DNA of 64,000 nucleotides from Marsupella aquatica (Eukaryota > Plantae > Marchantiophyta): the NCBI GenBank assembly GCA_973895155.1, contig OZ316894.1, positions 8,766,234-8,830,233 on the forward strand. Direction: 5' to 3'. Shown piece by piece: positions 11,339-60,120 of the stretch (positions are counted from its first letter, which is position 1; each line of letters opens with the position of its first letter). Made by a program: the position numbers and the translations under genes. The notes beneath the pieces were generated by a model. That model had not been told where the DNA came from and searched no databases. It was given only the letters and a program-made list of their open reading frames with translations.

Positions 11339-14300
11339 TTAGAGAGCTTGCTGAGCTCTCAGAAGAGCAACTATGGAACCTACTCCAGCACTTTTGAGAA
11401 ACTTGTGCTTCCTGTCCCGACCGGATTTTGGTTGATTTAGGAGTTTGCCACCTTCACTTCCAGCAGCAGCATTCGCCGGCTGCTCAGAAGGCGCTATTTC
11501 ACCTACCGAGGCATTGGCGACTACCACGTCTTTTTGGCAAAGTTCCGTCTTTTTCCTCTCTAACTCGTCTGATAAAAGAGCGTGCAAGGCAGATGCAAAA
11601 GCGGCTCCTTCTCCATCCTCCACACCTATATCACAATCATTTACCCATTGCTCAAACAAGTTGTAACAAAACAAATATTACGACTACCAGGTGATCCCAG
11701 GTACACTTGAATAGATACTTTCCTTGAGGGATCATGCACTAAAATTTTCCTTCAATCACTAAGAATGGTGTCAACAGATGAAAATGGGCTGAACAATGCC
11801 ATCCTATACACCAGAAAATATCAATCGCAAGGTTCCGTAGAAGGTGAGACAATCCCACACAATATAAAAAACAAAGAAATCATTGCTATATTAGAATTAA
11901 GAAAGGTCTGTACCTTGTTGCTCTCCAGAAGGAATGCTATCACCTATATCAGTGACGGGTTCACGATAAGGACTATCAGGTTGGTGAGCGACTGCAGTGG
12001 TCGGATCCAGTTCTGCATGAAGAAATAAACCCCTTGAGTTGATTCTTCTCCATCTACTCTAATTAGGTTGCGCAAAATCTGTCAGAAAAGCAGCACTAGG
12101 TGGTCTATATGCACAAGATCGATGAGAATGTGTTGGTCAGTACCTGTTCCCATCACTACACTTGTACAAGGACCCACTTCATGGTTCTCAGTAGGCACTC
12201 TCTGCATTAGCCGGACTTCCACGAGGGAAGAAAACTCAGTCTGCAATGCGAGCAAATGCATCACTTAGCCAAACATAAATAAAGAAATCACTCAACCACA
12301 GACTTTTCGTTAGCTCTTCCACAAATAAGCTGAATTTATCCGGGTATGTCACCTGTAAGATAATCAGGGGGCAGCTCTCATCAAATGACAGTCCGGGTAT
12401 CTCGAGTTACACTCAACAAGCGGCATCCAGCTCATTTGAGTGTCATTAATCTCAACTTTCACAACAAAGTCGAATCTAGGAATCGTGGTTTTGTGCTGTT
12501 AGCCCAAGGGAGGTAACACAGGCAGGTTCCAAACAGTAAAGATAAGTGAAGTAGCTTAATGTCAAACTAAGCCTAATGTCATAGTACGCAATTGTCATCC
12601 CCTCCGAGCTTAAGTTCATTGTGGAAGACTTCTAAATCACATGAGTAGCAAACAAATGTAGCTCACCTCAAGCACTCCATTTTCATCATATGGACCAACT
12701 ACTTGCATCTCTTCCACACTCCAAAGCTCTTCTTCATCCTCTGAAGAAGCCTTTTTTCCAAGACGTGGATAGTCTGGGTGTGGGTCCACCTTGATCATAT
12801 TAGTGGCATTGTCCCATAAGGCAACTATACCGACCTACATACACCGCGTTATAGTGGTGTTAAGTCGAGACAGTCAATGAACATACTCTGAAACTATTCA
12901 AATACATTCCAATTGATTTAAGTGAACATTTCGTTTAGAACTGAGATGATATTCAACAGTCGTCTAGATTTTCAGATAAGCAGTAGAGGCTGAACTCCAA
13001 ATTCTGGAGCTCAGAAACAGTCTTACTCGGTAAGGCGAGATTTCCGGGGTCCATGATGCAGTTAGCTCCACTAGACGATAGGCCAACACATCACCTTCCT
13101 GAAGTGCAAGTGAACCACAGATTAGCCTGTACTTCCTACAGCAAACCTGTGCCACGGGCTGAGGGTAAATTCCTACATCGATAACAAAAGACATCGCTGT
13201 CCATGATTTGCATCTGCAATAGCTCCTCAGATTTTCCATCAAACGCCAAATCATCCTGCCCACAAATTTGTGCTTTAAGAATGTAGTAATAGACAGTGCC
13301 TCAATTAATAAGCTTTAATGAAGACGCACAGCTAATCCAATCCAAATATACCGTTAGATACAGATACAAGATGTCCTGTACATATGTCGAGAGTAAACCT
13401 GTGGGGAACCATCAAGGGCTGGATGCCTTTCAGGGTCTATTTGATGATCACTTCTTTTGTTGAGCTTTTCATCACCCAACTCTTCAGGAGTTTGAAATAA
13501 GTCGGCGTCAGTTTGAAATCTTTTGCCCTTGTAATTCTCCGTGCTCTTCTCCTGTCCCCAATTTTGGCCTTGTCTCTTAGTCTTCACCTGGTCCCCAAAT
13601 AGGAGCGCAGGCTGCGGGACATCAGTGTGCCAAATACCACATTTCATCACAATCTTCATAATTTGAAATTATTCCATGAATCTTAAGATAAGTGCCAATC
13701 ATTTCGTGAGGCGTTTTAAGCGAACATATTCATCTCAATAATTCAAGCCGTATCCACTCCTGAAGTCTAAATCAAACAGAATGCTTTGGACTTTAACTAT
13801 GCCCAAGAGAGTAAAAAAAGTAAGCAATGACAACCGTTCATGCTTCAGTTCAACGTTCATCTCAAATGTAACAACTTTACACCTTTAAAATCAGACAAGC
13901 CCTGGCATAAGATTGCGGAGAAGGACTTGCACGAGACGGATCAGTCCTTCCACCAAAATTCAAGAAGTAACTTATGAAATATGACATCCATCTCAGCTTG
14001 TGCATTTATCCACAGCAATCATGACACAGTTTTGCTATGGAACCCGTTTCTATCTCCCATCCTAATTGCTTCAAAGTAAAAGTCTTACCACGGAGAGACG
14101 AGATTGATCTTGTCTTTCACCTGCGAGTAAGAACGGAACGGCATTTCTTAGATCTCCAAAAATAATCATTTGGCCATCAAAGAAAACTCTGATATGGCTG
14201 TGAATTAGGATATGTAAGGGGAAGACAGTAAAGATGGCCATACCTATGTCATAAGGTTCAAAACGAATATGACCCGCACGGACAACTACAGGCAGCACTT

Positions 14301-17300
14301 CCTCTTCAGCCTCCACCTCCACCACTTTGTCACGAATAGGTGAGGTGTTCAGCTCTTGCTCTCTGACTTGAACTTTAGACCGCTTGCTTTCCAAAACTTG
14401 GGTTTCAACACCAGTAAGCAGTAGCGCCATCTGCGCTCCAACAAAGAAATTGAGTCGGTTTTGAGTGTTTGTGGTAAAACCTTAGAAATCCTTTGGGAAC
14501 GTTCTATTTTCCAGAGTGCTTCAGCCTCTCTCGACAGCCTCTCTGGAAGAATCCTGTGAATATGATAAACCTTCTCCTAAGTCATACAAACAAGCACAAA
14601 TTTCGTGCTTCACACTCTTAGTAGCAGGAATGCACTCGAATCGGGTGAGAGAGTACCTTTGCTTGCTCTCGTAACCATTGTCTTTTAGCCTTTTTTCTAC
14701 GCGCACTCCTACTTGGCCTCTGCCATATTAAACCACAGTAAGTATCTCACCTTTGAGCCCAATCAACTTCAGCAACTCATCAGTAGGGTTTGTGAAAGAG
14801 AATTTGTATAAGTACTTAGTAATTAGACTGACATCCTAACGAATTGGTCCAGGTAGCTTTGCCCAACCTGAGAAATTCATGTAAGAAGAAACAGCCTTAA
14901 GGCGGTACTGTCTCTCAAACTCAAAAACACACCAAGCTAAAGAACTGTATATACGCATACTTGTTCCTGGATTGGAGCTTTTGTTTCATTCTTTGGTGTC
15001 CTGGCAATTGTGGATTCACCGTTCACCTCACTCTCTGGCGTCCTAACTGGGATTGACCCTTCAATCGCTTTGATCTCTGGAGTCCTGTGTTTGGGGCAGT
15101 AAAAGTTTGATAAAAAGGTTTCAGCTTTGACTTTCGGGATTTCCATTCATAGCAGCAGCGCGAGGATATACTTACAAACACAACATGTAGTCCACAAATA
15201 AGTTATAGCGCATTTTGAAGGAAAACGTGAGCGAACCCATCACCAGTCTTTAGGACAAATATGTCAGGCGTGTAGCATTGACTAGAGAGGAAAGCAAATC
15301 AAGAACTTCAAAGCTTAGGGACGCGTATACCAAAACAATTTTACTCTTGAGTCCAAACTACCTCGGAAACCACTTTACTGTACCTAAACTCTACTGTTAC
15401 TTGTAGCGTCCAACTATATTTTGATGTGATTACCTGTGCTTTTCTGAAGGGGATTCTAACTTTTCTTTTTTTCGTTTTTTCTTTCCTTCAACCTTGTCAA
15501 CGGCCGCTCCCTTCTTCAACATCCCTTCCCTCACTGTACGATTACAAAGTACAATTAGGATGGTCCCCCGAGATTTCCATCGAAGTCAAAGAAAGAATAA
15601 CCTATATATGGCGCTAAATGCTCACACTGACAAGATAACTGCAAACGAACTAATCTTACATCTAGTAGAATCAGTTACCCAATCGGAGTCATTGGGAACA
15701 GACAACGCATCACAACACGAAATCATAGAACTCAAGGAAGTCATTGGAGCTATTTAATAGACAACAGGGCAGCCCTCTTGGTTCTGAAAAAGTAACAAAA
15801 ACAGACTATAGACGGAAACACTACATCCTTGCAACTGAACGGGCCTGTTTATCGACTCCCATTCAAATCTTTAATTGTGTCCAACAACATGCTCAAGTTC
15901 AAACTCTGAAGCAAAGTCTTGAATAGGCTTCATGGCCTCTTCTGAACTGTGTCCTAATAAGTTCCATATCCACAACACGATAATTTGCCTTACTAGGATA
16001 GGTTACTTCAGGTGGAATTGAGATAGAAGTCTTTTAGGCTCACTCACCATCACTTTCATTATTCAAGCCGTTGATGCCTTTTCTTTTTTTCTTTTTCTCG
16101 GACCCTTTCTTCAGCCCATCTTTGCAATCAGCCTCGGCCTTAAATCGCACCTCGTCCATTGTTTCTATTGACGTGAAAGTAGCACCGCCTATGTGTGGCC
16201 CGGAATTATTGAGTTTCTTTCGTTTCACCTTTTGCTCACCATCCTTTCTATCCTCAACGGTGTGGTGCACATCGCTGGACGATGGCCTATCTTCACCTAT
16301 CTGCGGGACTTGGCCCTGCCTGAAGAATAGATACGATAATGCCAGCACTCCCCACCGTCAGTCCTTCCTACAAATCCTTCTCACGAAATTCTACATCTAG
16401 TTCCCATACATCTAAATAATGAACAGGGACAGCAGATTGGAACCAGACGATGCTATAACTCACCCTTCCATGTTCAGTTCTTTTCTCTTGCACTTTTTCT
16501 CAATTTTCTCCTGGTTACTGAGAGTGCTCTGACTGACAGCCTTCACTTTCTTACGACTACGCTTCCGTTCCCCCATAATAACTGTCACAGCTCCATTCTC
16601 TTCCGTTTTATTTGTTCCAGTTTCCTTCTCTAACTCATCCAAAGGAAATATACCCCCAAGACATTGAGATACTCCACAGTTGATAACCGAGTTGCTTTGA
16701 TCCTTGATCTGAACAATCGCAAGCTCCTGTCGTGCTCCCAGATCCTTGGTTTGTCTGCAAGGAGAATGCAGTTCAGACACAGTTAAGTAGATACTACAGC
16801 AATACCTCCACTTTCAAATTACTTTCCATCGCTATCTGGAGATTGAACATATCGTACAAAAATTGACTAAGTTCAGCTAAAACTCAAAAGCTGGAGATTC
16901 ATTATCTTGCACATGAGCGATGTTGTTGTTGAGGCATGACTGCACAAAGATGTCAAAAAAGGAACTCACACTTCTGATGCGACGTTATCGCTTCGTTTAT
17001 GTGTCTTTCCACCTCTATCTTTCCGCTTCCTCCGAGCAGGGGAAGGATGAGTTTCAGTTAAAGGCCCCAGTTCCCCATCCAGAGAGAAATCGGTCTCCAT
17101 CTCTCCTTCCTCTTGTTCACTTTCATATCCTCCAGTTTCTTTCTCAAACTCATCCAAGGCACGAAGTTCAACCCCATGATATCCGTTGAACCTTTGGAAG
17201 CCATTGGCCATCCATTCCTTATCTTGGATATGGTCATGTTTATTCCTTGTTTCGTATGAAAGTTGTCCTTGGATGTCTGTTCTCCGCTTAATTCTGCACA

Positions 17301-18654
17301 GGAGAAAAGTGAACCAACTTGGCATCAACTCTTACTCGCCCAGAAAGGGAAGCCATCGTGCAGTGAAATGTTGCGTTGTAAGCAGGGGCATATTGCCTGT
17401 GCAGACCCATTCCTGAAATGCAAAGCTTAATAAAAGGAGTTTTTCCGTTGATTGGGGACTCCAACAGAAAACCGTCACCCCTGAAATTACTCATTTTCCG
17501 ACAACTTGCTCATGATTATCCCGCAATGAGAGCATTCGTTTATCTAACACGGTTAGCCTCCGGACAAAATGTGGCAGCGCAGGCACTAGGGAGAATCTTT
17601 AGTAGAACAACAATAAATTTAGTGTGCTCGTCATCAAGAAGTCAATCTTATTAAAATTCCAGGGAGTCTTCAAGAGAATCCTTCTTTCTACATTTGCCCT
17701 TGTTAAATCGATCACGAAGTTTCATCAAGAATTCGCCGGGGTAATGTAGTACGATGTTGCGGAGTAGCGGGCCGGGATAAAAGTCGTAAATATTCAAGTC
17801 ACGCATATAGTGAGCTCTAGATTTTCGTATGTTCTCTCGAATGTGAACGAGCGTACATTCCACACATTTCCTGAATTGTTTTCAAGAGAAAGGACGTAAA
17901 TGAAATAAAATACCTGATCAGATCAGAATCCTTCAGAAGACGGGCCGGTTGAGAGGCGGGAAGAACAAATCCCTCTACCTAGAAAAAATCATTCCGTAGC
18001 ATGTCACGTAATGAGCAAAGACGCAAGACCAGACAAACAGAAGCGTATATTGATACGTCCTATCAACGGACAGAATCCTTAAAGAGGAAATCCAATCGAT
18101 GGAAAGCGTTACTACAACACTAGCGCGATGATCTAGTGACAGTAAACCCCATAATTGACCTTCCCTTTGAAGCACCTTCTGACTACAGAGCGTTCATAAC
18201 GCCGCATTCCATGTCTACGAGAGTCCTAGATTTTAATAAACCTCAAGCCCGCGGCAGTAGATCTCAGTGGATTCGTCTCCCTGTCAAGCATTGCGGCTCA
18301 AGCTAGTCTTGAACTACCTCCAGCTGCAGCGCAAATCTAATCCCAAACACGAATTTTCACATTACTAAATTCCTTAAACCCTACATCTAAATTCGAATGC
18401 CAGGCCATCGAGACTGAATGCCGTTCAGTGAATCAGTAGTAAGAAGGTTACCAGACCTCTAAACTGAGGCCATTCGGGCACGATTCCTCGATACGGAAGG
18501 CAGCTCTGATATCAAAAGCGACATCGGCAATTGTGTGAACTTCCTCCAGGACCACCAGGTACCAGCTCTGAGCCAGGCCCTGCTCAATCTGCTGGCTCGT
18601 CAAGATATCAGGGTCCTGGAACTTCAAACGAACTCTGACTCTCGTCGCGTCCAT
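11339..18654 (-). CDS. COIL: Coilin (Cajal body protein), multi-exon
   Basis: Exon 1 18654-18457 (MDATRVRVRLKFQDPDIL...SWYLV); exon 2 17978-17914 (VEGFVLPASQPARLLKDSDLI); K-rich middle exons; VVVRAGHIRFEP; Tudor-like EGDVLAYRLVELTASWTPEISPYR; C-terminal GVGSIVALLRAQQAL*. Internal exon boundaries not all resolved. Confidence 0.9.
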
Positions 18655-18803
18655 CGTTTGCTTTGTTCGGGACAAAACCCTCCCTCCTCGTCCGAATTGT
18701 CAAATCCTCATCGTCGAGTCGAATGATAAGTTTCTCGATCTCAGACGGCATCGCCCAATGAAGCGCACGCAGAGCTCACAAATCGACCGATTGTGAGTTT
18801 AAT

Positions 18804-18897
18804 TTCATCTACCATAGTAGTGTTGTGTTCATCTACCATAGTAGTATTGTGTTCATCTACCATAGTAGTATTGTGTTCATCTACCATAGTAGTGTTG
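18804..18897. repeat. 24-bp minisatellite (about 4 copies) in the coilin promoter region
   Basis: Unit ttcatctaccatagtagtRttgtg. Confidence 0.95.
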
Positions 18898-20391
18898 GGA
18901 CACGGCGCCATGCAACTGCGCAGTTAAATTTGTCGCGAGGTTTTCTAACAGCTGAAACTCCAAAAAACAGAGAGGTTCAGGCCAAGGTCCAAATGGGCTT
19001 CAACTTCTACTGTAGTTCATATTACTTCTTATTAATATTCATGACCCTGAAGCTAGGATGGTCCACTTGTTGGACACAGTGCTCCAGGAGACCATCCTTT
19101 GATGGTCCACTGGATTTTCGGGCCCATAACTTGATGATTGAGTACTAAAATAATTTTTACTTTGGTACTGGCACGGTGACAGATTTTTATGGTCCATGGT
19201 AGTTTGGGACCCATAACTTGATGATTATGAATCCGGAAATAATTCTTAGTTTTGCACCTGCATGGCCACTAGAGAAGGGGAGATATTAAAAATGCAAGCT
19301 TGCCCAGATATTTCATGGAAACACAATGAAATTTAACCCCTCCACATTTTATGATGAAAAACTCAACCATCATGACCAAAAAATCACTATCACTTTGATG
19401 GAGTGTAGCTTATGTGATCCTCTAGCATATTCTCAAAACTAACATATATTGAAATTCTGTATATCAAGTTATTCCAATTGAACTCAAATTTTGGGAGATG
19501 TGGTCAAAGGGGGTTAATTTCAAAGACCAACCTCGTGGTCCATGGGGTTTTCTAAAAGACAGGTTTTCTAAATGACTCAGATTCCAATTCCAACTAAACC
19601 CACAGTTGTACTCAAGTTAAAATTCCCTTTTATTGTAGCATCTTGTCACACATCTTAACAAATAATGTAGCATCATTTTTACAGATCTTATTGGCCAGTC
19701 AAACCTTTTTATTTGTTTCTCAACACTCACAATGAGCATGGCTGGAAACTTTTGCAGAATGTTGCGCATAAAAGACCCCTCTTGCATTGTTGCACTGTGT
19801 TACATAGCACTACCATACTAAGGAGCATCTCATGTCACTGGAGGGATTTTGCAGATCTTTCTTACAATGAGTAGCCTGTTTGCTCTCTTGGGGCGGCGTA
19901 GAAGAAGAATGCAGCACCACACTTGTACTACAGTAAGAGAGATCAGATTTGTGCAAAACTAAATAATTATTGAAATTTTAAAATCTGCAACAAAATATAG
20001 GTAGTGTTTGTCAAACTTGGAAAAAATTCAAAGTCAATATATTAAAAAACTGTACAAGTACTTTAATGTAAAACCACTGATGTATTGTTTTCAGAGTTCA
20101 AAAATTAGATGTGAATAGATTATTTATGACATTGCACTATAATCTGAAAGGTAAAAACGTTGAGTTTTGGCGTGGGGCATGCGAGAACCTAATCATCCTT
20201 ACATGCAGTACTACAACACACTGACATGAAGATGAATGCATAGTGGACCGAGTCATCCCAGCCTACAATACTACTACTACATTGACATTGAGATGACATA
20301 AGGAAGAACATATAATAGGCCAGCATATGATAAAAACTTTACTAATCCTTTTGCAAAGCCCGAGAATGGAAGTGGCCACTCTCGTGGCTAC

Positions 20392-20533: not shown

Positions 20534-20908
20534 GGACCTCCCCCTAGCAGGGTGCGCCTCAATTTGGAAGCCAACCAATATCCTCTAACACTCCCTTTGT
20601 CGTGCGCATACACATCGCTACACAACATACATCGCTTGTCACACATATCCAAGCATAGTCAGAATCTAACGACACAAACCTCAGAGAATGATCTACAAAT
20701 GGAACCCATGTCCATACATGCCCAAAACCCACAATCGCCCCCCTAGCTGGAAGTGAGGTCCCCTAACTCTAGCTAGCCATGAGTTCTACAAGGTTGATAT
20801 ACACCTTTTTAGGTGTGAAGATCAGGAGGCCGGGTGCAAGTGAGCCCCATCGATCACCTACCTGCAATCTATATCTTCCATGAGAACATGAATGATAACT
20901 AGTCGGCA

Positions 20909-22477
20909 TCACCGACATTGAGGACACAACCATGATCCATTGGGAATCATGTGCAAGGGTGGTGTCAAACATAATATGTGCCATCCTCTAGAACACCGAT
21001 CACAAATCAACATAGTAGCTGCTCCCTGAGCAGACCCACACAACATACACTTCAAGCCAGCACGAACATGTGCCAAGCTTGGATCCACAGTACCATCAAT
21101 GTTTGGAAGATGACATGACGCACAATTACGCACATGATCCTTCCAAACCATACCATCACGTCCTTCCAATATAAGGACTCCAGAAGGCAACACTTCACGC
21201 ACACGTAAGATTGTCCGCCCTGCAGTTACATCAAGCGTCGTTGGTGCTGTCTGCTGCAAATAAACATAATCGCCAGGATGAAATCTTCTAATCCTCGTGC
21301 GATAACCTCCTCCACGAATAGTAGCATACCACAAAGTATCACGATGTTGAGCAATAGCAAGGTTGTCAAAGGCCATGGGCATGACTCTCTCAAAAACTCG
21401 TGTCCTCTCTGAACAAACCTTGACCCAAACATCTGGATCATCCAAATCCACAACAGTTGCAGCATCACGACGAATAGCCGTTGGCAAATCTGGTTCTCTA
21501 CCATAGAGCAAGAAATAAGGTGAAAAGGATGCAAGTGATGCTTGTCGACTGAAACGGTAGCCCATAGCTAACCAAGGTAGTTGGAGATCCCAGTCTCCCA
21601 AATGACCAACCTACAAGCCATACTTACGCAATCCTCTCTTCACAGTTTGTACAACCCTCTCTGCCAATCCATCTGCCTCAGGATGATCGCGAGAAGTAGT
21701 ACGATGATCAATCAGAGCTTGCTCACACAAACCCTCAAAATCTCCACGGAATTTTGTGCCCTGATCAGTCAACACCTCAGCTGGTGCTCCAAAGTGACTG
21801 AGTACTCGATCCAAAAATGTGGTAGCCACTCCTCCACTAGCTTTATCTGGCAATGCCACTAGTTCAATCCACTTGGAGAAGTGCTCCACCATAACCAAAA
21901 CATACCGATTGTGACGTTGGGTAAGAGGCAATGGACCAGCAAAGTCCAAACTCCATCGATATCCCAAACCCATGATCGGCAACGGATGCAACTGGGGAGT
22001 GGGAGCATTGAACGATGCTCGCACTCGATCACAAACCACACACTTAGCTATCAATTGCTGGACATCAGTGTGCATACCACGCCACCAATACTGTGTCTGC
22101 AGCAAGCTATAAGTGCGCTTCACACCAAAGTGCCCTAACTCTTCGTGCGCATGTCACACCAAATGTACTCGTTGTGACGGTTTTGGTACAACCAACACCT
22201 TCCCATCACGTAGTACCCTCAAAAGATGGTTTCCTTCCCATCAAAATCTCTTGGCTCGTTGTAGAACCCTATCACGCTCCTTAGCATCAACATTGCCACC
22301 AATGGAGCCAACACGCAAATATTCCAACACTCTCACATCGTTGTGAATATCTTGCTGTCCAAAAACTACATCACCAACATCCATATTGGAAGATTCATCA
22401 TCTCCTCTATCCAATAAGTAGAGTCTACATATCCAGTACATACTGGCACCCAACAAAGGAAAGCAGATGCATGCCAT
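20909..22477 (-). pseudogene. Retrotransposon integrase (HHCC + DDE core) with C-terminal PHD finger
   Basis: HEELGH...CVVC zinc site; WSLDFAGPL, VLTDQG, ADGLAERVVQTVK; C4HC3 PHD CMLC..MLICDRC..WH..CLTPPL..IP.GSWLCPQC (21049-20912); stops at 22241, 22154, 21611. Confidence 0.93.
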
Positions 22478-23988
22478 CCTGGCACCATCTCCTTATCCGT
22501 CTCATCATGCCATCGAGCTCCAGTCTCATCCTCTTGACTGGTACATGGATTGCGGCTCAACCCATCCGCATCCAAATTCACTTTTCCAGGTCTATGCACA
22601 ACCTGAAAATCATACTCCTGCAACATCAATGCCCATCGTGCAAGCTTCCCTCTAAGCTTGTCAGACTCCATTAACCACTTGAGAGGTTGATGATTAGTGA
22701 TCAAGGTGAACAAATTACCAAACAAATAGCAACGGAAATGTGCCACAGCCCACACTGCTGCCAAACACTCTCCCTCATAAGAGCTATACTTAGCCTCTAC
22801 TGAATTGTTGGATCTACTGGCATATGCCACAACAAACTCACTCCCCTCATCATCCTTCTGAGTCAACACTGCTCCAAGTCCTACTCCACTCCAATCAGTG
22901 TGAAGCTGAAATGGTCGCCCTGAAATGGGTCTTCCCAAAATAGGTGTTGACGCCAGTCTTTCCTTCAACTCTTGGAAAGCATGCTCCTGGTCGTCTCCCC
23001 AAATCCACTCTTGATCCAACTTAGTGAGTATAGTTAAAGGTTTAGCAAGCTGGCTAAATCCTTTAACATATCTCCTATAGTAGCTCGCCAATCCCAAGAA
23101 TGCACGAACTCTGCTCACATTAGTACGACGAGGAATCTGTGTAATGGCCTCCACCTTAGTCTGTTGCACACCCAATCCTCCTGGGTAGATAGTGTGGCCC
23201 AAATACTCAATCTTCTCTTGAAAGAACTTACACTTGCCGGGATGGAGCTTCAATCCATGTTCCCTCAATCTCTCAAACACAATCTGCAAATGTCTCTGAT
23301 GTTCTTCCACAGTAGAAGAATAAACCAAAATATCATCAATATAACATCTGACAAAATCCAAACCTGCAAGGATTCGATCCATGACTCTCTGGAACTCAGC
23401 TGGTGCATTCTTCAACCCAAATGGTAAGAACAACCACTGATACAAACGATCTTTGCCATAAGAATCAATTCCCCAGAATGTTGTCTTGGACCTGTCAGAA
23501 TGCCTAATTGGCAACTGATGGTACCCCGCTCTGAGGTCCAACGAACTAAAAATCCTTGCATGCCCCACTGCATCAAAGATCTCCTCCGGTGTAGGCATGG
23601 CATATCGATCAGATTTTGTCTAACGATTAATAGGCCGGTAATCACCGCATATTCGCCTATCCGTGTAATTGCCATGCACATCCTTCTTGGCTGGCATCAC
23701 TGTGGCAGATGCATACTCTCCGTATGAAATCTCCACCAAACCAGCTTCCAACAAATCCTGAGTTCTACTCTGAATCAACGCCCTCTCCATATCACTATAT
23801 CGGTATGGTCGTCGAAAGATTGGCGCATCACTAGCCAATTCAATCTGAATACCAGGGCCCTTCAATGTTCCCAAATCCTTCATGCTAAATGCAAAACAAT
23901 TCCAGTAACTCTTCAAGAATTGATGCATTCGACGTCTCTCACCCCCTGTCAACTTAGGGCCAATTTGTGGCTCCCAACTCTCCATCAA
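22366..23988 (-). pseudogene. Ty3/gypsy reverse transcriptase and RNase H
   Basis: RRPYRYS, CGDYRPIN, LDLRAGYHQ, PFGLKNAP, YIDDIL; RNase H LHTDWS, EGECLA, NLDADGLSR; in-frame stop at 23620. Confidence 0.96.
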
Positions 23989-24033
23989 AGCTGTGATGTC
24001 TTCCTTTGGGGTTGAAGAGATAGTCGGTGGTTG

Positions 24034-25488
24034 CTATTTAGCAACAATTTGAGCAGTCCCAACCTGCTCAACAATCTGTCCTGCCTTGGCCAATCCTGCC
24101 ATAGGTCCATGGACTGTCTGCTCGCCCCCAGCTGTGGTCGCTACTGTCTCAATAGACCGCAAGCTCACCAATGGACGATCAGTAACACCAAAAGAGCGCA
24201 TCCGCAATTGTTCAGCTAATCCCAAGCTGATAATCCAAGTCAAGCAATTCAAATCCATGGCTTGACCAAGGACCTGGCGGCGTGAACTCTCTGACACAGA
24301 AGCAACTGCCGTGGTGCCAGTCAAAAATCCCATAGCACGCTCTCTTTCATCAGCAGTAGGTTCCACTAACTGCTGTAGAGTTGTATCCCAGACAAGTCCA
24401 GGCCCACCTGCTCTGAATGCATATGAAGCAGAATGGCTCACAAAAGTGGGTAATGCATAACGTGGGCAACCAACTATATTGACCACTGCCAATGGAGGTC
24501 TGTCAGGTTGGGTCACACCTTGTGCACGACGCCCTGGATCCAAAATATCATCCACCACCAAGGTTGCTGAGCGAGGAATGCTATCAAATGCTCGCTTTAA
24601 CACCTCACAAGGTAACAAATTAGTCCACCACAAGCGTGGACGATGTGCACGAGAACCCACACGTGCAGCATCCAATAACACAGCAGGTCCAATCCAAGAC
24701 TTAACCTGATGAACACTGGCAACAAGTCGATGATGATCATCACCCAATAATGGCACATTCTCCAAAATGTAGGCAGGGGAATGTGTCTGATGCAACTGAA
24801 GATGACGCAACACCCGTAACATCTCCCAAAACAATGCAGATCTTGGATCATGAAGTCCATGTCCAACTCCAGCTCTAGATTGACCTTGACATGGCCAACC
24901 TGCAATCACCAAATCAATGGGGCCAACGCGATCCAGATGATCCGCCCCCAACAATGAAATATCAGCTGGTAATGCATGCTGATAACCACGAACGGCATCC
25001 ACTGGCAACAATTGTGGGTAGCGTTCGACCAACAATGCCACATGACGTAATGAGACTCTACGTGCTGTCTCATCAGTCTCCACATACAAATAACGACGCA
25101 CTGGAATGCCGGCTTGAAGAACGGCAGCCAATCCAGTGCTAATTCCACCAAATAAATCCAACAAACAAATACCCTCATGTGGATATTGCCATGCAATAGG
25201 AGTAGTATCCAGTGGTGAAAGAGTCACTGGTCCATTTGCAGTTGATTGCTCTGCTCTTGATTGCGGTGTAAAAGCATGACGCCATGCATCATGTATCAAT
25301 CGGGCCGCACTTTGTGGCAAGGCCTGTCCAGTACCCCATACTGGTGTCACAACACTATCAATGGGCAATCCATGCATCAAGTGTTCCTCATGTGCCTCCT
25401 CCACTGTAGAAACATCTGCTGCATGTGCGTTACCCTCAATCAAATCATCAGCTCCAGTAATCAAACTACTGAATGCTGCCAAAGACAA
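24034..25488 (-). CDS. DNMT3-like C5 cytosine DNA methyltransferase domain embedded in the retrotransposon pol frame
   Basis: Motif I LLDLFGGISTG; II YVETD; III ADI; IV AGWPCQG (catalytic PC); V DPRSALF; VI YILENV; VII LDAA; VIII AHRPRLWWTNL; IX ERERAMGF; X RRQVLGQAM. Linear (non-permuted) order; same frame as RT across a single TAG at 24034. Confidence 0.95.
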   Translation of the reverse strand: MSLAAFSSLITGADDLIEGNAHAADVSTVEEAHEEHLMHGLPIDSVVTPVWGTGQALPQSAARLIHDAWRHAFTPQSRAEQSTANGPVTLSPLDTTPIAWQYPHEGICLLDLFGGISTGLAAVLQAGIPVRRYLYVETDETARRVSLRHVALLVERYPQLLPVDAVRGYQHALPADISLLGADHLDRVGPIDLVIAGWPCQGQSRAGVGHGLHDPRSALFWEMLRVLRHLQLHQTHSPAYILENVPLLGDDHHRLVASVHQVKSWIGPAVLLDAARVGSRAHRPRLWWTNLLPCEVLKRAFDSIPRSATLVVDDILDPGRRAQGVTQPDRPPLAVVNIVGCPRYALPTFVSHSASYAFRAGGPGLVWDTTLQQLVEPTADERERAMGFLTGTTAVASVSESSRRQVLGQAMDLNCLTWIISLGLAEQLRMRSFGVTDRPLVSLRSIETVATTAGGEQTVHGPMAGLAKAGQIVEQVGTAQIVAK

Positions 25489-25518
25489 TGGTGCATTCAG
25501 TAGTTTGATTACTGGAGC
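25451..25518. repeat. Perfect 26-bp inverted repeat with 16-nt loop at the gag/MTase junction
   Basis: gctccagtaatcaaactactgaatgc (25451-25476) and gcattcagtagtttgattactggagc (25493-25518). Confidence 0.95.
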
Positions 25519-25531
25519 ACTAAAGACAATG

Positions 25532-27337
25532 TCAGCATATCCGTAGCGGAAATAATGGCATGCGCACTATAGTAGTGGCCGCCCCCAACAGGGTACTTGT
25601 CATCCCTGTCACAACATCACGTGAATCCGCCAACTTCCTCTCACCTGGGTTAGTCCGAACCGGATTCATAGAGGTAGTTTGAACTGCCTCTAACAATGTA
25701 AACGATTGGGGAAGCTTCGTTTGACGACGAATATCCCCTCTCTGAGGATCCAACCCTACCACTGCTCCTCGTGGCTCAAGGGCTTTAACTGCTCCTCGAG
25801 TCAAAGCTGTTGATGCATCAACATGCGTAGTGCCACACATAAATCCCATGGTGGCAAGATCTGCATCAGCTCCATAAGAGGTTGAAGCTCCATAGGATGT
25901 AGAAGCCCCATCACTAGCAGTAGGTCTAACTTGAGAACTAGCCATTGCGGCTAGTTGTTGCTCCAATTGAGCAATCTTTGCATCTTTAGGATCTGTGGTA
26001 ACGATAGGAGCAACATCACCTCCCTGTCTTCCTGCATGTGGCATGCCTCGACCATGTCCACCACCTCTACCTCCTCTTCCCTGATCATACGCACGTGGTC
26101 CTCCCCGTCGTAGTTCAGGATGAAGTACAAAACACCTATCTTTGGTGTGTCCAGAAACTCCACAATGATCACACTGTCGTTGATCAGGTGTAGATGACCC
26201 TCCTTGCCCCCTATTATCCGGGCAATATCTTTGTGCATGATCCCCACCACAAGTCCAACATCCTGATTATTGTCCAGCATAAGAAGGCACAGGTCTCTGA
26301 CTACTAGATTCCCATGTTGTAGGCTTCTCTCTCTGGCTCTTACGTGCAGTAGGTTGCGGTGTGGGCGTCGATGCAACCTTTGGTGCTTCCTTGGCAAATC
26401 CGGAAGTCACCACCTTCTCATTCACCATATTGAGCTCGATGTGCTCAGCAAGTGCAAAAACTATAGCCAATGTGGGATCTGAATCCCTCAATAGAGTGGC
26501 ATCTCTCACTCTACGATGCAACTCCCTATCCAGAATTGCATACCAGAATTGGACCGCTTGGGCCTCTGTCACTCCTTGTGTGACCGTAATCAATCTTTGC
26601 ATACGAGTGTATGCCTCACGTAGGCTCTCTCCAGTCTTGTGCTGGAACTCTTGAAGACCCTTCAACTTATCGGTTCTCACACCCTGATAGTTCTGCTTCA
26701 ATACTTCAAAGAACTTCATCACAGGGTTAAATGTTGGCGCAGCTCCACTCCCAGCCACAATCACACCGGTAGGAGTAGCGGTGGATGCTGATGGAGTGCC
26801 ACTCTGGCTAGTGCTGCTAGAAGAAGCCGCAGCTGTAGCAATGGGTTGGGAAACCGCACTTGTGCCATAAGTGATGGACACATAGTTTGGTGACCAATGC
26901 TGTCTCCATGCCTCAATATCCACTAAATGAGCCTTTCAAAACTCATGGTAGTCATCCATGGGTGGCCCCTCCAAATGCTGAAACAACCCTTTCCAAGCCA
27001 TGAAAGGTGTGAACAATGTGGCATTACGCATTGTCTGCATATCACACCACGTATCAAACTCTTGGATGAAATCATCCAAATCAATTATGCCAACTGCACC
27101 AGAGTATCTCCTCGGCCCTTTCGTGGCCCCATACATCTCTTCCATATCCCACAACAATGGAACAGTCACTTGATATCGAGGAGAAGTGGCTACTAAGTCC
27201 TCGTCAGAATCACTATCTGAAACCCCACTTGTAACCACTAACAATGTCGTCGGCCGAAATTGCACTCCACTCCGAGTGAAACCAGACCGTCGTCCCTCGG
27301 GTAGCCCCGTATCACCAGAGGACTCCGTGATGACCAA
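25532..27337 (-). pseudogene. Retrotransposon gag with two CCHC zinc knuckles
   Basis: One frame broken by stops at 26936 and 26267; LQEFQHKTGESLREAYTRM gag motif; CWTCGGDHAQRYC and CDHCGVSGHTKDRC read directly after the 26267 stop. Confidence 0.88.
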
Positions 27338-27389
27338 TTTTCCCTAAATGGTCACCATCAACTCACCACTATCAATAATCAACCGATTG

Positions 27390-27752
27390 GCGAAATGGTG
27401 TTCCGTGGATACCCATAACTCAATCGCGGAACGGTGTTCCGTAATGCATCACCACCAATCTCCAAGACAATTGACGGAACGGTGTTCCGTCAATTGCTTA
27501 GTTGCGGGACAGTGTTCCGCAACCCTCCATCACCACTAGCCAAGCTAATTGGGGGAACAGTGTTCCGTGGAAAACCAATCTTCCCAAAATTATCACAACA
27601 AAATGGTAATTTGTACCCGATCGTTCTTCAATATGCACTCACGACGGAACAGTGTTCTGTGGAAGACCAATCTTCCCAAAACTACCACGACGGAACGGTG
27701 TTCCGCGGTCAACCAATCTCCAATATGCCCTCTCAACGGAACGGTGTTCCGT
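27390..27752. repeat. Array of nine palindromic units CGGAAC-RGT-GTTCCG with variable spacers in the retrotransposon leader
   Basis: Units near 27391, 27427, 27475, 27505, 27553, 27599 (degenerate), 27645, 27691 and 27737; period 30-48 bp. Confidence 0.9.
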
Positions 27753-29354
27753 GGAAGACCTTCACAACCCTATTGCTGCGAAAACCCCGCCGCAATTCCC
27801 GGACAAAGTCACTGTTCACTCACTTTGTCGTTTTCCTTGTGCCCTAGGTCGCCGCCGCACCTCGCCTCTCCGCGGTGCACTACGTCGCCTCTCCGCGGTG
27901 CGCTATGTCGCCGTAGGGGACACAATTCGTCAACCTTCAACATCACTTTCTTCGAAGGAATGCACTGTCCGTCAACATCAAACTTGATGAATCTCAAATC
28001 CGCAACATACAACTTCAACGATCAACCCCCGATTGGAACCATCCCTAACCAGAATCACAAACAATCACAAGTCCGACCAACTTGCCTTCACAAAACCGAA
28101 GCGAATACTCTTAGCAATCCGCGCATAACAATCGACGGCAACTTCCGATCATCGACCGCACATTCAGTCCTCCAACATGCTACAATGTCGATCGATGCAA
28201 ATCGCAACTCCAAACGCGCAACTCAACAACTCAAAGCTCCGCATCCACTCGAGCTTTCTCAACACCAACTTGTAACAGATCGAGATACCAGCGATCCGTT
28301 CAACAACAAAACCCGATCCGAGATACCACGAATCGTCAACAACAAAACTTCAACGAAATCGAACTTCTATTTGCACGATCCGTACATCAGAATTCGAAGC
28401 TCATCTTTCAATGTAATCTTCTTCAATAGTGCAAATCGAACAACGATCGGTGCTAATCCAACAACGATCCCATCCGACGCGATCACACATGTATGTCAAG
28501 CCCAACGCACCTTGTGCTTCAAGGAATCCACGTTACATGCACACAACTTGGTCAGCCACACCATAGCCACCAAGCTCATGCTCAAAGGCTCAACATTGAA
28601 AGATGAGGCCTTTGCGCCAACACAAGGGGATAACTATCCCTCACACCAACTCAAACTAAACATAGTGCTCATGTAGCACACATACAAACCTCTATACCTA
28701 GATAGTACGATATACTTTACCACCACTCTAAATGGTGTGACACCTTGCTTGTGGTGTGAATCAGTTTGGTGCTTGGTTACTGGTGCTGATCCTTGAATAT
28801 TGATCACTAGTGAGCGCTTGTTCACATGGATCTCTTGTGAGGAAGGGGAACCCAGTCTTACAAAATCCTCATACATATGTTTCTAGGGAGCTGTTATATA
28901 AAGTTGTTGAGACCACCCTTGGTCTCTACTTTGGCCCCAACCAGTTTCCAAAGTCAGTTTGCCATGTTGGGCTCCAACTTAATTAGAAATGCGCAGACTG
29001 ATATAGGTGTTGGAAGCCAAGGGCAAGGGCTATCAAACAAGAGACCAGCCACTGGACTCCAAGGTTGGGGTTGGAAAAGATGGACACATAGCAAGTCATC
29101 AAAAGTTGGTTAGGAATAAGATGAGGGAGAAGATAAAAGAGTACAAAAAGATGTTTTTTCGGGCTCTGAGTGACCCCCTTCCCTTAAAAAAAAGAGTACG
29201 AAAAGAAGAATACTAAGACATAGTATAGAAGGATTAGCAGTGTAGTTAGGGAATTAGGTGACTCCAAGGTATGTTAAAGGGTGAATGCTGTCAACTTTTG
29301 AATGAGTTTTTTCATTCCTAAATTCTTGGAGTCATAGTTTCAACCATGCTATTG

Positions 29355-29522
29355 AGGAAAGTGAGCACAAAGTGTGGGTCACACATCATGTTCTATTTTG
29401 GCTTAAAGCGCCACTGTCCATGACAAAACCTGGATCCAAGGAAAGTGAACACAAAGTGTGGGTCACACATCAGGTTCTACTTTGGCTTAAAGCGCCACTG
29501 TCCATGACAAAACCTAGATCCA
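29355..29522. repeat. 84-bp tandem duplication
   Basis: aggaaagtgaRcacaaagtgtgggtcacacatc...aaaacctRgatcca twice. Confidence 0.9.
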
Positions 29523-32500
29523 CATTCAAGGTTTCACCATTTTTAGTATTTTTTTCCTGAAATTTCGGAGCAAAATCTCACCCTAGAGGAGATGAATGTG
29601 AAAAAAGGAGAAGTATTAGACACTTCTATTTTATATGGCCAATGGTGGTTTAGTGTTTAGGGTCTTTGAAATTAACCTCCTTTTTCTCAACATTTTCATT
29701 CTTCCCAATCTTTTTTGTGTTCTAGAGCCCCAAGAACTCTGAACACTATGCATTCTAAGATTAAGGCTGAAGTTAGTTGTTGCTAATAATGAGAAGGATA
29801 CCATGAGTCCAATTGCAACTTTTTTGTGTCAAAACCAACTCCAAACTTATGAATGATTAAGTTCATAATATCATTCTCAAATTTATAGCAGCATGGACAA
29901 GCCACATGACATGAAACAAAAATTGCTACTAGAAAACTGTTTATCATCCATATTGCTCTAGATAGCTTAATTTGCAGGCTTCATAGACTTTTGATAATTG
30001 TTTTGATACATAAATGAAAAACTACAATGCATCATGCAAGAGGGATGCTGATGAGAAAATATAAGTGTGTTTGCAAATTGGGCTCAAGGTTCACCCCTAG
30101 GATGTTCTTATTGCAACAACCACTAGAGTTTTTTGAATTTCTCATGAGTTCAGAACAAAAGGGCTCTTTGGAAGTTAAAAAATGGATCCTTGTTGGAAAT
30201 TCAACAAAAATTATGTTTAATTCAAAATGTGAAATCTTACAAAGCTCTATCAAACTCAAAGTGCTTTAATCATCAAATTGGAACCATGCATTGATCATCC
30301 ATTTTACAAGTATTTTGTTTAGGACAAAAGACTAAGAAGTGGATACTCTTGCTGTCAAGACCTGGGGCATTATCATCACCGTAACTCTCCAACGGCTTGT
30401 TCTCTCCATGCAAAGTACTACACAAACACGTCCTGGAATATCATGCCCAACAGTTTGGATGTCACTACACGAATGTGCATCCTGCCATTGTGAATACACA
30501 ATGTTAATCATTTGGCCAAAAGTGAGCTGGTGCCAACACGTGGTGTGTGGAACATCAACTTGCTCGACCACACTCACTCCAGGAATCAAGTGAGCCTGTC
30601 TGACCAACCAGGCACGAAACCTATCACATGAAATTTGAGTAGTAGGTCCCTGTTGCAAACCAGCTGGAACGGATGGCAGGCCTAGTGCTACATGTACTGC
30701 ATGCTGATCTGTAACCTGTACCATAACTGCAAAGTAGTCCACTCCAAGCTTTGGGGCAATCTCTTGACACAGCTTCAGTGTCTCGGGGGTGATCAATTCT
30801 CTCACATTGTCTTCCCAAGTAATACGGACTCTCGCCTGATAGAGCACACAACACCCAAAGAAAAGTCTGACATTAAAGTTATCCACAATGTAAAGGGGCC
30901 AAAACCTGGGCCAGACTCTATTCTCAGACCTTTATTGTGTTTCCTTAAGCTTTCCCAAAGTTCCCTTGCAGCAGCATCATTTGGCAAATAAGCAGGAGAG
31001 TTATGGGGTTCACTTTGGTTAGCCTACTACTGTACAGTACCAGGGTTCACATCAATCTGGGGGAGCATCTCGCAGTAGAGGGAAGCAGCTTCTGCGGAGG
31101 GGAGCAGCTCACGAGCTTGGAAAGAACCTTGCATTGGAGGCTTTAGTGGAGTGGAGCAGCCTGATTACTCTCAGCGGCTCACATCAAAGGAGCACACAGG
31201 TCGCAGCCTGATTACTCTCAGCAGATTGCAGCGAAGGAGGGAAGTAGCTCGCAGGGGAGGGGAGAGGGTTGAAGCCTGAATATTTCTCAGCAGCTCGAGG
31301 CAATGAAGGGCCAGAGCTTGAGCTTCCAGCAATGGAGGCAAGGAACGTTGGCTCTGGGCAATGCTCAGTAGCTTGGAGCTATGGAGGGCCTGGGCAGCAA
31401 AGCCCCGACACTATTGTGGAGACAAAAGCACAAGTTTCACCCTGTATCTGGCCCCCAAGTAGTGAAAGTTTCAATTCCGATAAACTTGCCCAATAATTTA
31501 CTACAAGCTGAAGACGAGTCGCCCTTAATCACGCACATAATGGATGACTTTATTGTCATCAGTGGAACACAAAGTATTTTAGATAGTTATTGTTAAAAAA
31601 TTTAAAGAACACAAAAGCTTTTTCAAAAGGGTCATTTAAACCTATGTAGAATTCAAGGATTATGCAAATACACACATACTGACCTTTTGGGTCTTTTTGG
31701 GTTGGCTTCCCTGCTCTCCTTCCATCTGGTCCTGAATTCACACTATCATAATTTAATTAACCATCAGCAGTAACCATGAAAAATAAGATAAAACATATGA
31801 AAAAAGTTTCTAAAGATGGGTCAAAACCTACAACAGAAACAACACTAGCATGACGGGGGGACATTCCCCACATGCCTTTCAAAAGTTTAGATAACATAGC
31901 TTGGCATAATTAGGTCATGACTGAGAGAGCAGAACATTCATGGCAAACCAAAGAGCATCAAAAGTTGATGAAATTTAACTCATGCACCAAGCCATTTAAC
32001 AATGGACAATCAATACTGCAACTCACCAAATTCTATAGCAAATTGATTTCTATAACTCAAATAACCATGGTCTATTTTGAGCCACCCATGTAGCTAGCAA
32101 TTTTAACGGTGTGTACAAAGATCCTACTGTAGATCATCCTGAGCATGGAGGCGGGCTGAATACATGTGGCAAGGAAAACAGCGAAGCTGGTTTAGAGAGC
32201 CGGAAGTAGTGTCCGTTCGTGCAAGAGATGTAACCCACTTTCATATACCGCTACAACGAAAATCAGGCTACGCTCTCCACATCATCGCCACAGACTCTAT
32301 GAAGTGCAACGCAATGCAATGGAGAAATTCAATCTTGCTACACGCACGCAATTTCAGCAAAACAGTTCTCCAGTCTCACCTCGAGTATTTTGTTGGGGTG
32401 ATTCGCTATCGGAAGCCGTTGTGGAAAGCCCCTTGTGGAAGCGTCGTTGCCGATAACCCCTTCGCCAGGGTTTGCGACTGACTTATCTTGGAACGGCGGA

Positions 32501-35500: not shown

Positions 35501-35639
35501 CATACATTTGCGCTCTCCGTTTGTTGAGGACAGGAGACATGTTAATTGCGCCGTTCATGGTTTCTCTCACTGTGCAATCACTATGTGCGCGGGTTAGGGA
35601 ACTGCCGATGTCTTACAGAGTATCGGAGAGCTGGAGCTG

Positions 35640-57479: not shown

Positions 57480-57553
57480 TGCATCCTACACCATTTGAAC
57501 CGGTGTCCTTCAACTTAGAAGGTTGTTGCTCTATCCAACTGAGCTAAGGATGC
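57480..57553 (-). tRNA. trnR: tRNA-Arg(UCU), organelle-type, probably a pseudogene (T-stem broken)
   Basis: GCATCCT/AGGATGC acceptor stem, GCTC/GAGC D-stem, anticodon loop CT-TCT-AA, TTCAAAT loop; T-stem ACCGG/GGTGT mispaired. Confidence 0.8.
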
Positions 57554-58692: not shown

Positions 58693-59022
58693 TACCACTA
58701 CCGTGTGATATAGTGTTGAGTCCTACACAGGCTTGATTTACAACCAGTAGATGGCTCTACTATCGTATGGTACACGTCTACGTATGGAGTCCCAATACGC
58801 ATTCTCCTCCGACTTACACAAGAGGAGAGAAGTCACAAAAGCTCGAACATTCTTCGGTCCAAATGCGAAGAGCAGCGAGTTTTCTCTACTCATGAATTGC
58901 CCACCCCTCCCCAATTTCAAGCGCGAAAGGTCGAGCATTCCTTCGCATTCTGTGCCAACGGAAGCTCGAGCAATCCGTGCCGAGGTCGACAGCGTAGGAA
59001 AGCTCGAGCGGCTTGAGTAACC

Positions 59023-60120
59023 ATGGCGCCCATGAATTGGAGGCCCTTGATGGGCCTGGCGTGCCTCCTCGTCTGCCTCCGACAAGCTTCACTCGTGGCG
59101 GCAGCACGCGGGGACCTCCCTTCGGATTATCTCGCGCAGAAGCCCGACGACCTGGAGGCGAAGTTGCAGGAGCAGCGGCCAATTCTGCAGCAATCGCTTA
59201 TCAATGCCGTGAACCAGAACAAGCTCTCGACATGGACTGCGGGACACAACCTCCGGCTGGCCGGGCTCACGGTGAAGGACTTCAAGAAGCTCTGCGGTAC
59301 AATCAGGGGGCGTCCGACGGAGCCGATCGGCGCGGAGGAGGAAGTGCAGGTCGTCAAGAGGATTGGGAAGAAGAAGAAGCCGACGCTACCGGCGAGCTTC
59401 GACGCTCGGGAGGCATGGCCTCGATGTGAGAGCATTGGCACGATCCTCGACCAGGGGCACTGCGGTTCATGCTGGGCCTTTGGCGCTGTCGAGTCCCTCT
59501 CGGACCGATTCTGCATCCACGGCTTCGAGAATGTGACGCTCTCCGAGAACGACCTCCTTGCGTGCTGCGGATTCGAGTGCGGCTATGGGTGTGGTGGTGG
59601 TTATCCTTACAGGGCGTGGCAGTACTTCAAGCGGACGGGGGTAGTTTACGCCTCGTGTGACCCTTACTTCGACACCATGGGGTGTGGCCACCCCGGTTGC
59701 ACTCCCGAGTATGACACTCCGAAGTGCAGCAAATCTTGTGTGAGCGATGACCTCTGGTCTGAGTCGAAGCACTACGCCACAAGCGCATATTATGTGGATT
59801 CCGATCCCGAGGAGCTCATGCTGGAGCTAATTACGAACGGGCCGATCGAGGTATCGTTCGAGGTGTATGAGGACTTCGCTCACTACGTTTCTGGCGTGTA
59901 TCAATACACGGCCGGGGAGTATATGGGAGGGCATGCCGTAAAGCTCATCGGATGGGGCACCACCGTGGAGGGTGTGGATTACTGGACTATTGTTAACTCG
60001 TGGAATGAGGACTGGGGAGAGAAGGGGTACTTCCGAATTGTTCGGGGAACTAACGATTGTGATATCGAGAGTGAGGCTACTGCTGGGATTCCATACCTCA
60101 AAGGGAGACTGCAGGTCTAG
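59023..60120 (+). CDS. CATHB: Cathepsin B-like cysteine protease (C1A), intronless
   Basis: Signal peptide and propeptide, [23 protein letters not shown], plant-type occluding loop [23 protein letters not shown]. Confidence 0.96.

Follow-up and report, generated by a model that had tools for sequence, protein, structure and literature searches.

A decayed Gypsy element of the liverwort Marsupella aquatica with a DNMT3-like methyltransferase, a conserved stop before its reverse transcriptase and split end repeats

DNA methylation silences land-plant transposons. The present text concerns a retrotransposon that carries a cytosine methyltransferase (MTase) of its own, located in a 64,000-nucleotide stretch of the Marsupella aquatica genome (assembly GCA_973895155.1, contig OZ316894.1, positions 8,766,234 to 8,830,233 of the forward strand), referred to below as the window. 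Its closest described counterpart is KnitGypsy-Dnmt3 of Klebsormidium nitens, in which Gypsy domains are combined with an intronless, non-permuted DNMT3-like MTase under purifying selection and with DIRS-like repeats, all of them features that recur here (PMC5890265). The same article describes SymbioDIRS-Dnmt3, likewise a retroelement with an MTase and split repeats, whose DNMT3 was shown to methylate CG but which differs in having a tyrosine recombinase (PMC5890265). EpiLTRs also pair retroelement MTases with a chromatin reader, yet do so with DAM, a DNMT4-related enzyme and a chromodomain (bioRxiv 10.64898/2026.05.21.726589). Gypsy-7a_cRei and REM1 of Chlamydomonas resemble the window element as Gypsy polyproteins with a PHD thought to bias insertion, although the domain list given for Gypsy-7a_cRei, compared here by description, is without an MTase (PMC9940879). 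Finally, in Tf1/Sushi elements and plant Tcn1, as in the window element, a stretch of the 5' repeat is complementary to at least 10 nucleotides (nt) directly after it (PMC6317226).

The window element shares with KnitGypsy-Dnmt3 the intronless, non-permuted DNMT3-like domain in a Gypsy element and the DIRS-like split repeats. However, its MTase and reverse transcriptase (RT) do not occupy one open reading frame (ORF): while the MTase of KnitGypsy-Dnmt3 lies in the Pol ORF (PMC5890265), that of the land-plant element closes a Gag-protease ORF at a conserved stop, and a single ORF was seen only in the Closterium proteins P0037 and P0242. The element is thus a variant rather than a strict member of KnitGypsy-Dnmt3. 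It further differs in its land-plant host, the Klebsormidium element being compared by description, and in a C-terminal PHD, a word absent from the main text of PMC5890265; a predicted self-primer, a 4-base-pair (bp) target duplication and an internal palindrome, all present here, were not found described for KnitGypsy-Dnmt3 in that text. Unlike KnitGypsy-Dnmt3, relatives of the window element reach the chlorophytes and carry the MTase after RNase H. From Tf1 and Tcn1 the element is set apart by its MTase, by a PHD instead of a chromodomain after the integrase and by the lack of a matched long terminal repeat (LTR) pair, owing to which LTR-finder surveys such as PMC6317226 are likely to miss the family.

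A preliminary description of the locus, made from the sequence, named no land-plant family of this kind, and none was found in the literature searched, whose coverage left out most subscription journals and key supplements, including the main supplement of PMC5890265, which may already contain land-plant members. Later papers by the de Mendoza group speak of 'streptophytes', citing the 2018 work, and no published paper on this family was found, by title, for split LTRs, self-priming or circle junctions. The kind of element is already known from Klebsormidium; what is probably new is the liverwort member, its conserved probable readthrough stop, the predicted self-priming and the probable integration at an internal palindrome.

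The element spans 20598-28742 on the minus strand, beyond the 20909-27337 first delimited, and is flanked by the 4-bp target duplication AAGG (Table 1). Its ORFs and their Pfam matches (eight element ORFs scanned, threshold E 0.01) give the minus-strand order gag, C5-MTase, RT, RNase H, H2C2/rve integrase and PHD. The MTase matches PF00145 (E 5.9e-11), the integrase PF17921 (H2C2) and PF00665 (rve), and the PHD PF00628 (E 2.7e-10), so that the MTase, RT, RNase H, integrase and PHD families named in the preliminary description were all recovered; two CCHC-type knuckles in gag, seen by sequence inspection, are without a Pfam match at this threshold. The best solved relatives of the RT are 4ol8 and Ty3-G Gag-Pol (E 1e-74 and 4e-73), the next best lying at E 9e-53, and the assignment to Ty3/gypsy is thereby upheld. 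Characteristic of Gypsy elements are also the order protease-RT-RNase H-integrase, with the protease, deleted in the window copy, taken from relatives, the DDE integrase with an H2C2 domain, and TG...CA ends with a target duplication in the range of 4-6 bp (AAGG; 4 bp in 6/6 complete loci). Two complete direct LTRs are missing, however. Repeat searches within the window found no direct LTR pair at the element ends, and relatives are laid out as A-coding-B or A-coding-B-A-B, A and B being the two end repeats. The element has Gypsy enzymes without the canonical LTR layout.

The window copy is a dead one, given its six premature in-frame stops (26938 and 26269 in gag, 23622 in the RT, and 22243, 22156 and 21613 in the integrase), two frameshifts and the deletion of its protease. 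About 700 bp are absent near 25550-25530 (a 704-nt jump in offset relative to the related locus L058), including the whole aspartic protease, whose motif D[ST]GA is present in the relatives P0001, P0002, P0018 and P0242. The frame shifts at this deletion and a second time near 22415. The locus had been described as one minus-strand polyprotein; the domain order stands, but the single polyprotein does not, as gag and MTase lie in different frames, the protease is deleted and stops intervene. MTase and RT do share one frame with a TAG at 24036-24034 between them, although this TAG is not, as had been supposed, the only interruption, considering the six further stops and the frameshift downstream. 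Taken jointly, the identity, domain order and decay of the element, the MTase throughout its family, the conserved stop, the split end repeats and the 4-bp duplication can be regarded as close to certain.

The element is a member of a large, high-copy liverwort repeat family that includes the MTase. Four host sequencing runs from at most two studies, the best of which may be the source sample, match the unique flanks without differences, and their summed contig depth, which is no copy number, is alike over MTase, RT and integrase at ~1000x that of the flanks; this similarly high depth indicates that the MTase is included in the repeat family. A land-plant host, as originally proposed, agrees with a cathepsin B ORF elsewhere in the window, which shares 80% identity with a protein of Calypogeia fissa and most likely places the host among the leafy liverworts. 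The family extends to other genomes as well: named MTase relatives come from Marchantia polymorpha, M. paleacea, Riccia, Calypogeia, three Sphagnum species, Closterium and Cymbomonas, and Scenedesmus proteins are also among them. Hornwort, vascular-plant and Klebsormidium proteins are absent from the named MTase matches listed, and no relative of the element occurs in the viral contigs searched. Among metagenome loci, 58 of the 67 with enough room have an RT no more than 3 kb downstream of the MTase, 37/53 have a protease upstream and 25/33 a PHD downstream; these counts overstate independence, since most of the 80 loci belong to one family and some repeat the same insertion. The RNase H query matched 50 targets.

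Trees of RT and MTase (FastTree, unrooted, with Shimodaira-Hasegawa-like supports) were built from the same 34 rows, which include 22 randomly chosen RT-first proteins out of 59, P0268 in addition, and 5 of the 11 eligible loci. In both trees the land-plant elements form one clade (100/100), and so do the elements with the MTase before the RT, Closterium included (99/99). The land-plant clade is sister to Closterium-type elements and stands apart from most elements with the MTase after RNase H, and in an MTase tree computed in quick mode the main group of metagenome loci falls with named Sphagnum proteins. In 64 proteins with both domains, the MTase precedes the RT in 5 and follows RNase H in 59. 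The agreement of the two trees speaks against a chimaera and for an MTase that has long travelled with this RT. A one-off chimaera, a host DNMT3 exon, contamination or misassembly would draw on the fact that, of the two junctions with the flanks, just one is spanned by a contig reaching at least 31 letters to either side. Yet the same architecture recurs across many loci and taxa, contigs span the MTase-RT junction without any difference, MTase and RT have similar depths, far above those of the flanks, and the target duplication is intact; such an origin retains next to no likelihood and, on these comparisons, is already refuted for the family.

The wider set of relatives offers some further observations. 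The MTase was matched by 248 clusters at 50% identity with E up to 1e-30. P0268, P0394 and 57 other proteins, including 'pol' proteins of Scenedesmus, have a single ORF in which the MTase stands after RNase H and ahead of the integrase, together with a PHD, and P0282 additionally carries a G-patch. Marchantia models such as Mp_4g09160 and Mp_8g17980 (among P0002, P0003, P0006 and others) are Gag-protease-MTase ORFs annotated as host hypothetical proteins; no paper was found for the Marchantia gene ids. P0134 and P0049, labelled as proteins of bacterial metagenome-assembled genomes, nest among these retroelements and likely represent eukaryotic contamination of those assemblies.

The MTase domain (25191-24199) is open and, as first reported, has no introns. 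Motifs I, II, IV (PCQ), VI (ENV), VIII (RxR), IX and X were individually identified in linear order, i.e., seven of the ten motifs that the preliminary description had ascribed to the domain. The catalytic Cys is kept in 39/41 alignment rows and the Glu of ENV in 40/41. Compared with the loci, the window MTase has a median nonsynonymous divergence (pN) of 0.215 and a synonymous divergence (pS) of 0.682, next to pN/pS values of 0.245/0.639 for gag and 0.165/0.645 for RT, a pattern of substitution that places the MTase under constraint like gag and RT. Searching solved structures with the single sequence returned DNMT3A/B at E 1e-12 and DRM at 4e-05 to 2e-03, and a profile search returned DNMT3A at E 8e-28, DRM at 1e-15 to 2e-12 and M.HhaI at 3e-10. 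A structure model from a 74-row alignment reached a predicted local distance difference test score of 96 (34 for a single-sequence fold). With this model, DNMT3A was the best Foldseek match (E 2e-21) and DNMT3B the best VIA-align match (Z 29.4, root-mean-square deviation 2.6, 273 aligned), ahead of M.MpeI (Z 25.7); DRM was not among the 50 VIA-align matches listed, which in itself does not tell against it. Motif order, sequence, profile and modelled fold thus agree in marking the enzyme as DNMT3-like and linear rather than as a permuted DRM, as had been proposed.

Comparison across the family marks the TAG between MTase and RT as a conserved feature rather than a product of decay. A stop followed by CARYY occupies this junction in 46/51 cases (35 TAG, 11 TAA; window included) as against 5/452 after decay stops, and among 16 divergent or missed loci eight show the stop motif, reading TAA CAA TCA in six and TAA CAA TTA in L075. 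In the four host runs, no variant is listed at 24034-24036 while neighbouring bases vary, and the common variant retains CARYYA. Named Marchantia and Calypogeia proteins terminate 94-98 residues past the last MTase motif, at the same place. Because this stop precedes the RT, the MTase belongs to the Gag-protease ORF rather than to pol; the earlier view that it is part of pol and not a host gene thus holds for its place in the element, which the neighbouring RT and the concordant trees support, and fails for pol.

Tobacco mosaic virus and other plant viruses use UAG-CARYYA for readthrough (PMC4132726). The element likewise has a stop followed by CAR-YYA, although its predicted signal sits after protease and MTase and before the RT. 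The conserved stop with CARYY is likely a readthrough signal here, too. ORF1 would then comprise Gag, protease and MTase, with occasional readthrough into RT, RNase H, integrase and PHD. Most ribosomes would terminate at the UAG and some would continue through the CARYYA context, probably leaving the MTase at the level of Gag and RT and integrase at a fraction of it. Alternatively, the stop could be the true end of ORF1, with pol expressed by reinitiation, splicing or an internal promoter, as the in-frame ATG two codons past the stop in the main moss-like family may hint; in Candida Tca2, moreover, the sequence around the stop did not by itself bring about readthrough in yeast (PMC2194720). 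This is improbable, since the window copy is without such an ATG, CAA-YY is kept behind it in four subfamilies and the full CARYYA in three, and the RT remains in frame with ORF1.

The ends of the element are equally distinctive; their split repeats, the predicted self-primer and the readthrough context had gone unmentioned in the preliminary description. It begins TGTCAC at 28742 and ends GCACGACA at 20598, and in all four host runs the inner edge of repeat A is an A-to-B joint (28414/20734), with joints at both 20598 and 20734. The runs contain B-to-A as well as A-to-B joints, the latter with ragged variants. The window copy is A-coding-B, while the longer form with a terminal B-A-B occurs in L050, L057 and L058, and a 4-bp duplication surrounds the whole unit in 6/6 two-ended loci (5 sites). 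The inner B-to-A junction reads CA-nn-TG/TA with exactly 2 nt between in 7/7 loci, typically as the palindrome GACA-GC-TGTC, whereas the A2-to-B2 junction abuts in 5/6 loci and contains filler in one. The pairs A1/A2 and B1/B2 are equally diverged, with 91-94% identity. Repeat B begins directly after the polypurine tract. Troyka, with CG...CG ends, a 3-bp duplication and an occurrence in animals only (PMC12440569), was rejected as a classification in view of the TG...CA ends and 4-bp duplication, and membership in DIRS/Ngaro was rejected as well, as an rve integrase is present and no tyrosine recombinase family was found among the eight element ORFs scanned.

The 14 nt after A pair 14/14 with 28607-28594 inside A, for which 0/1000 shuffles were as good, and by this sequence prediction the 5' repeat is complementary to at least 10 nt directly after it, as in self-priming elements. 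In the RNA fold, the predicted self-primer is paired. Moss-like loci have an unrelated 11-mer pair ~30 nt after a TATA-like box, and at least 9 of 11 primer pairs are kept in 4/4 second A copies and 9/17 first ones. It is thus very probable that the RNA would anneal by its 5' end to the stretch directly behind A and prime its own synthesis, as proposed for Tf1/Tcn1 elements. Ordinary reverse transcription would yield an LTR of the form B-nn-A, extending from the polypurine tract to the primer site, and complementary DNA (cDNA) whose outer ends are the start of B and the end of A. The integrase would cut the palindrome GACA-nn-TGTC inside the LTR, not the cDNA ends, and joining of the leftover ends would produce A-coding-B-A-B; A-coding-B, the form in the window, would either have lost A-B or derive from a one-LTR circle. 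The integrated form would be a circular permutation of the two-LTR circle, as the ends joined at A2/B2 are the predicted cDNA ends and the inserted ends are the palindrome halves. L034 13368-13482 and L052 7604-8171 represent the same insertion (shared downstream flank, 95%) ending in B and B-A-B, respectively, which suggests later A-B loss or assembly collapse and points to A-B loss as a source of A-coding-B. Jointly, the B-nn-A LTR, the cut at the internal palindrome, the end joining and this origin of A-coding-B are favoured on balance.

A fairly unlikely alternative is that the split ends stem from another copying route, either an RNA-templated B2 or tandem insertion and recombination, with the integrase using linear TGTC...GACA ends. 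The extra repeats are strictly 3' (B-A in 7 loci and 0/17 at the 5' end), the deviating ends of the shared L034/L052 insertion indicate that later deletion or assembly collapse shapes ends, and tyrosine-recombinase elements share the split-repeat layout (PMC5890265), all of which would suit such a route. However, B adjoins the polypurine tract and A the primer site, and standard priming would therefore give cDNA ending in the start of B and the end of A, the very ends joined at A2/B2; in some copies this junction has ragged edges or filler, which fits end joining; and the target duplication surrounds the whole unit and not half of it, which tandem insertion would not produce.

The PHD on the integrase is closest to those of the CHD4, KDM5, ATXR5, DPF and UHRF1 types (best 60 of 83 solved matches). 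PHDs that read H3K4me3 carry an aromatic cage residue at a position where the element has Gly, and the PHD therefore likely binds unmethylated H3K4. It would remain with the integrase after proteolysis and hence is more likely to steer insertion than the MTase. By reading H3 tails without K4 methylation, it may bias insertion, a step favoured by a narrow margin only. PHDs also occur in Gypsy elements of Chlamydomonas (PMC9940879). The preliminary description had likened MTase and PHD to the writer-reader pair of DNMT3 and its ADD domain, which is unlikely: ADD is a PHD-like module fused directly before the MTase, while here a canonical PHD lies far from it at the integrase C-terminus, and an ADD-like partner was accordingly rejected.

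Taken together, the element belongs to a green-plant Gypsy clade with a DNMT3-like MTase at the end of the Gag-protease ORF, an enzyme that is somewhat more likely than not to methylate the element's own cDNA in the particle. By such pre-methylation new copies would enter the genome host-like or pre-silenced, a step for which the chances appear even. Several observations weigh against this account. Besides the limited independence of the loci, 5/51 junctions and 8/16 divergent or missed loci are without the stop motif, the main moss-like family has CAA CCC instead of the full CARYYA with an ATG right behind, and Closterium P0037 and P0242 have no junction stop. Only 9/17 first A copies retain 9 or more of 11 primer pairs, and 0/17 upstream A copies have a B before them, although a symmetric cut would be expected to leave the mirror form A-B-A-coding-B. 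CpG depletion, as a sign of extra methylation, is no deeper in the coding part of the element (observed/expected ratio, o/e, 0.45-0.61) than in the flanks (0.50-0.66), and yeast expressing the DNMT of the Klebsormidium Gypsy element showed no methylation, a result its authors regard as inconclusive (PMC5890265).

It could also be that the MTase is kept for another job, such as nucleic-acid binding in the particle, RNA methylation, or methylation of host DNA near the insertion or in trans. The inactivity of the Klebsormidium Gypsy DNMT3 in yeast would fit, expression at Gag level would suit a bulk or structural role, and the position of the MTase in the polyprotein varies by clade (before RT 5/64, after RNase H 59/64). 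Against this, catalytic and S-adenosylmethionine-binding residues are conserved across distant relatives, which argues for chemistry, and human DNMT3B failed the same yeast test while DIRS-borne DNMT3s methylated CG (PMC5890265). Another job is thus unlikely in comparison with methylation of cDNA. In its widest form, the proposal is of an ancient clade that extends from chlorophytes to mosses and to liverworts, the model Marchantia among them; its members would owe a Gag-level supply of a DNMT3-like enzyme to readthrough, methylate their own cDNA and integrate as the normal route at the palindrome instead of by the linear cDNA ends, and the clade, missed by standard LTR finders, would act as a mobile source of de novo methylation. 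This can be put forward only tentatively. If true, the clade would have been such a mobile source in early land plants. With a constrained DNMT3-like enzyme in a liverwort and moss family, the question of why a transposon carries its own silencing enzyme becomes testable in Marchantia, where several such ORFs are currently annotated as ordinary genes. The readthrough context predicts the amount of enzyme made. From the permuted ends, integration is predicted to follow a route not ascribed to canonical LTR elements, and these ends would explain why LTR-finder surveys overlook the family.

Table 1. Coordinates of the element and its parts in the window, listed from its 5' to its 3' end.
Feature	Position	Strand	Basis
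Left target-site duplication AAGG	28743..28746	-	Sequence; 4-bp duplications in 6/6 related two-ended loci
Repeat A, 329 bp, left end, starts TGTCAC; predicted promoter and R/U5 of the permuted LTR	28414..28742	-	
Predicted self-primer, 14 nt within A	28594..28607	-	Exact reverse complement of the 14 nt following A
Predicted primer-binding site abutting A; without the TGG start typical of tRNA sites	28400..28413	-	
5' leader, CpG-rich (o/e 1.28), eight hairpin-like motif copies at 27751-27405	27146..28399	-	
gag, two CCHC-type knuckles, two premature stops	25550..27145	-	tblastn with Marchantia P0002, 51% over residues 1-530
Deletion junction: ~700 bp including aspartic protease lost, frame shifted	25530..25550	-	704-nt offset vs L058
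DNMT3-like C5 cytosine methyltransferase domain, open, catalytic motifs intact	24199..25191	-	
Conserved TAG and CAA CCA (CARYYA), predicted readthrough signal	24028..24036	-	Family comparison; motif meaning from PMC4132726
RT and RNase H, Ty3/Gypsy type, one premature stop; frameshift downstream near 22415	22500..23976	-	
Integrase (H2C2 zinc domain, rve core, C-terminal part), three premature stops	21050..22360	-	
Canonical C4HC3 PHD finger closing the integrase, then ORF stop	20909..21049	-	
Short polypurine tract adjoining B	20735..20744	-	Sequence; same G-run before B in related loci
Repeat B, 137 bp, right end, ends GCACGACA	20598..20734	-	74% over 68 nt to L058 B, E 8e-09; host-run joints at both edges
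Right target-site duplication AAGG	20594..20597	-	Sequence

The eight hairpin-like motifs of the leader (27405-27751, minus strand) are of the type ACGGAAC-ACC-GTTCCGT and possibly constitute a packaging or regulatory array; none was present in four moss-like leaders checked. Two other repeated stretches with raised summed depth flank the element at 18901-19702 and 29327-29727, and a 24-bp tandem array and an 84-bp pair lie at 18780-18921 and 29355-29522, respectively. Elsewhere in the window, the cathepsin B ORF mentioned above (59017-60120, plus strand) is intronless and also 67% identical to a Riccia and 62% to a Sphagnum protein. Exon-like frames at 11339-17331 (minus strand) and 35598-37597 (plus strand) presumably resemble coilin and an SNM1/Artemis-type nuclease. 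A stop-free frame of 1505 codons at 41202-45719 (minus strand) has ~285-bp internal repeats, a Cys-rich stretch that looks RING-like by eye and a CpG o/e of 0.19, and a tRNA-Arg(TCT) gene is located at 57480-57553 on the minus strand.

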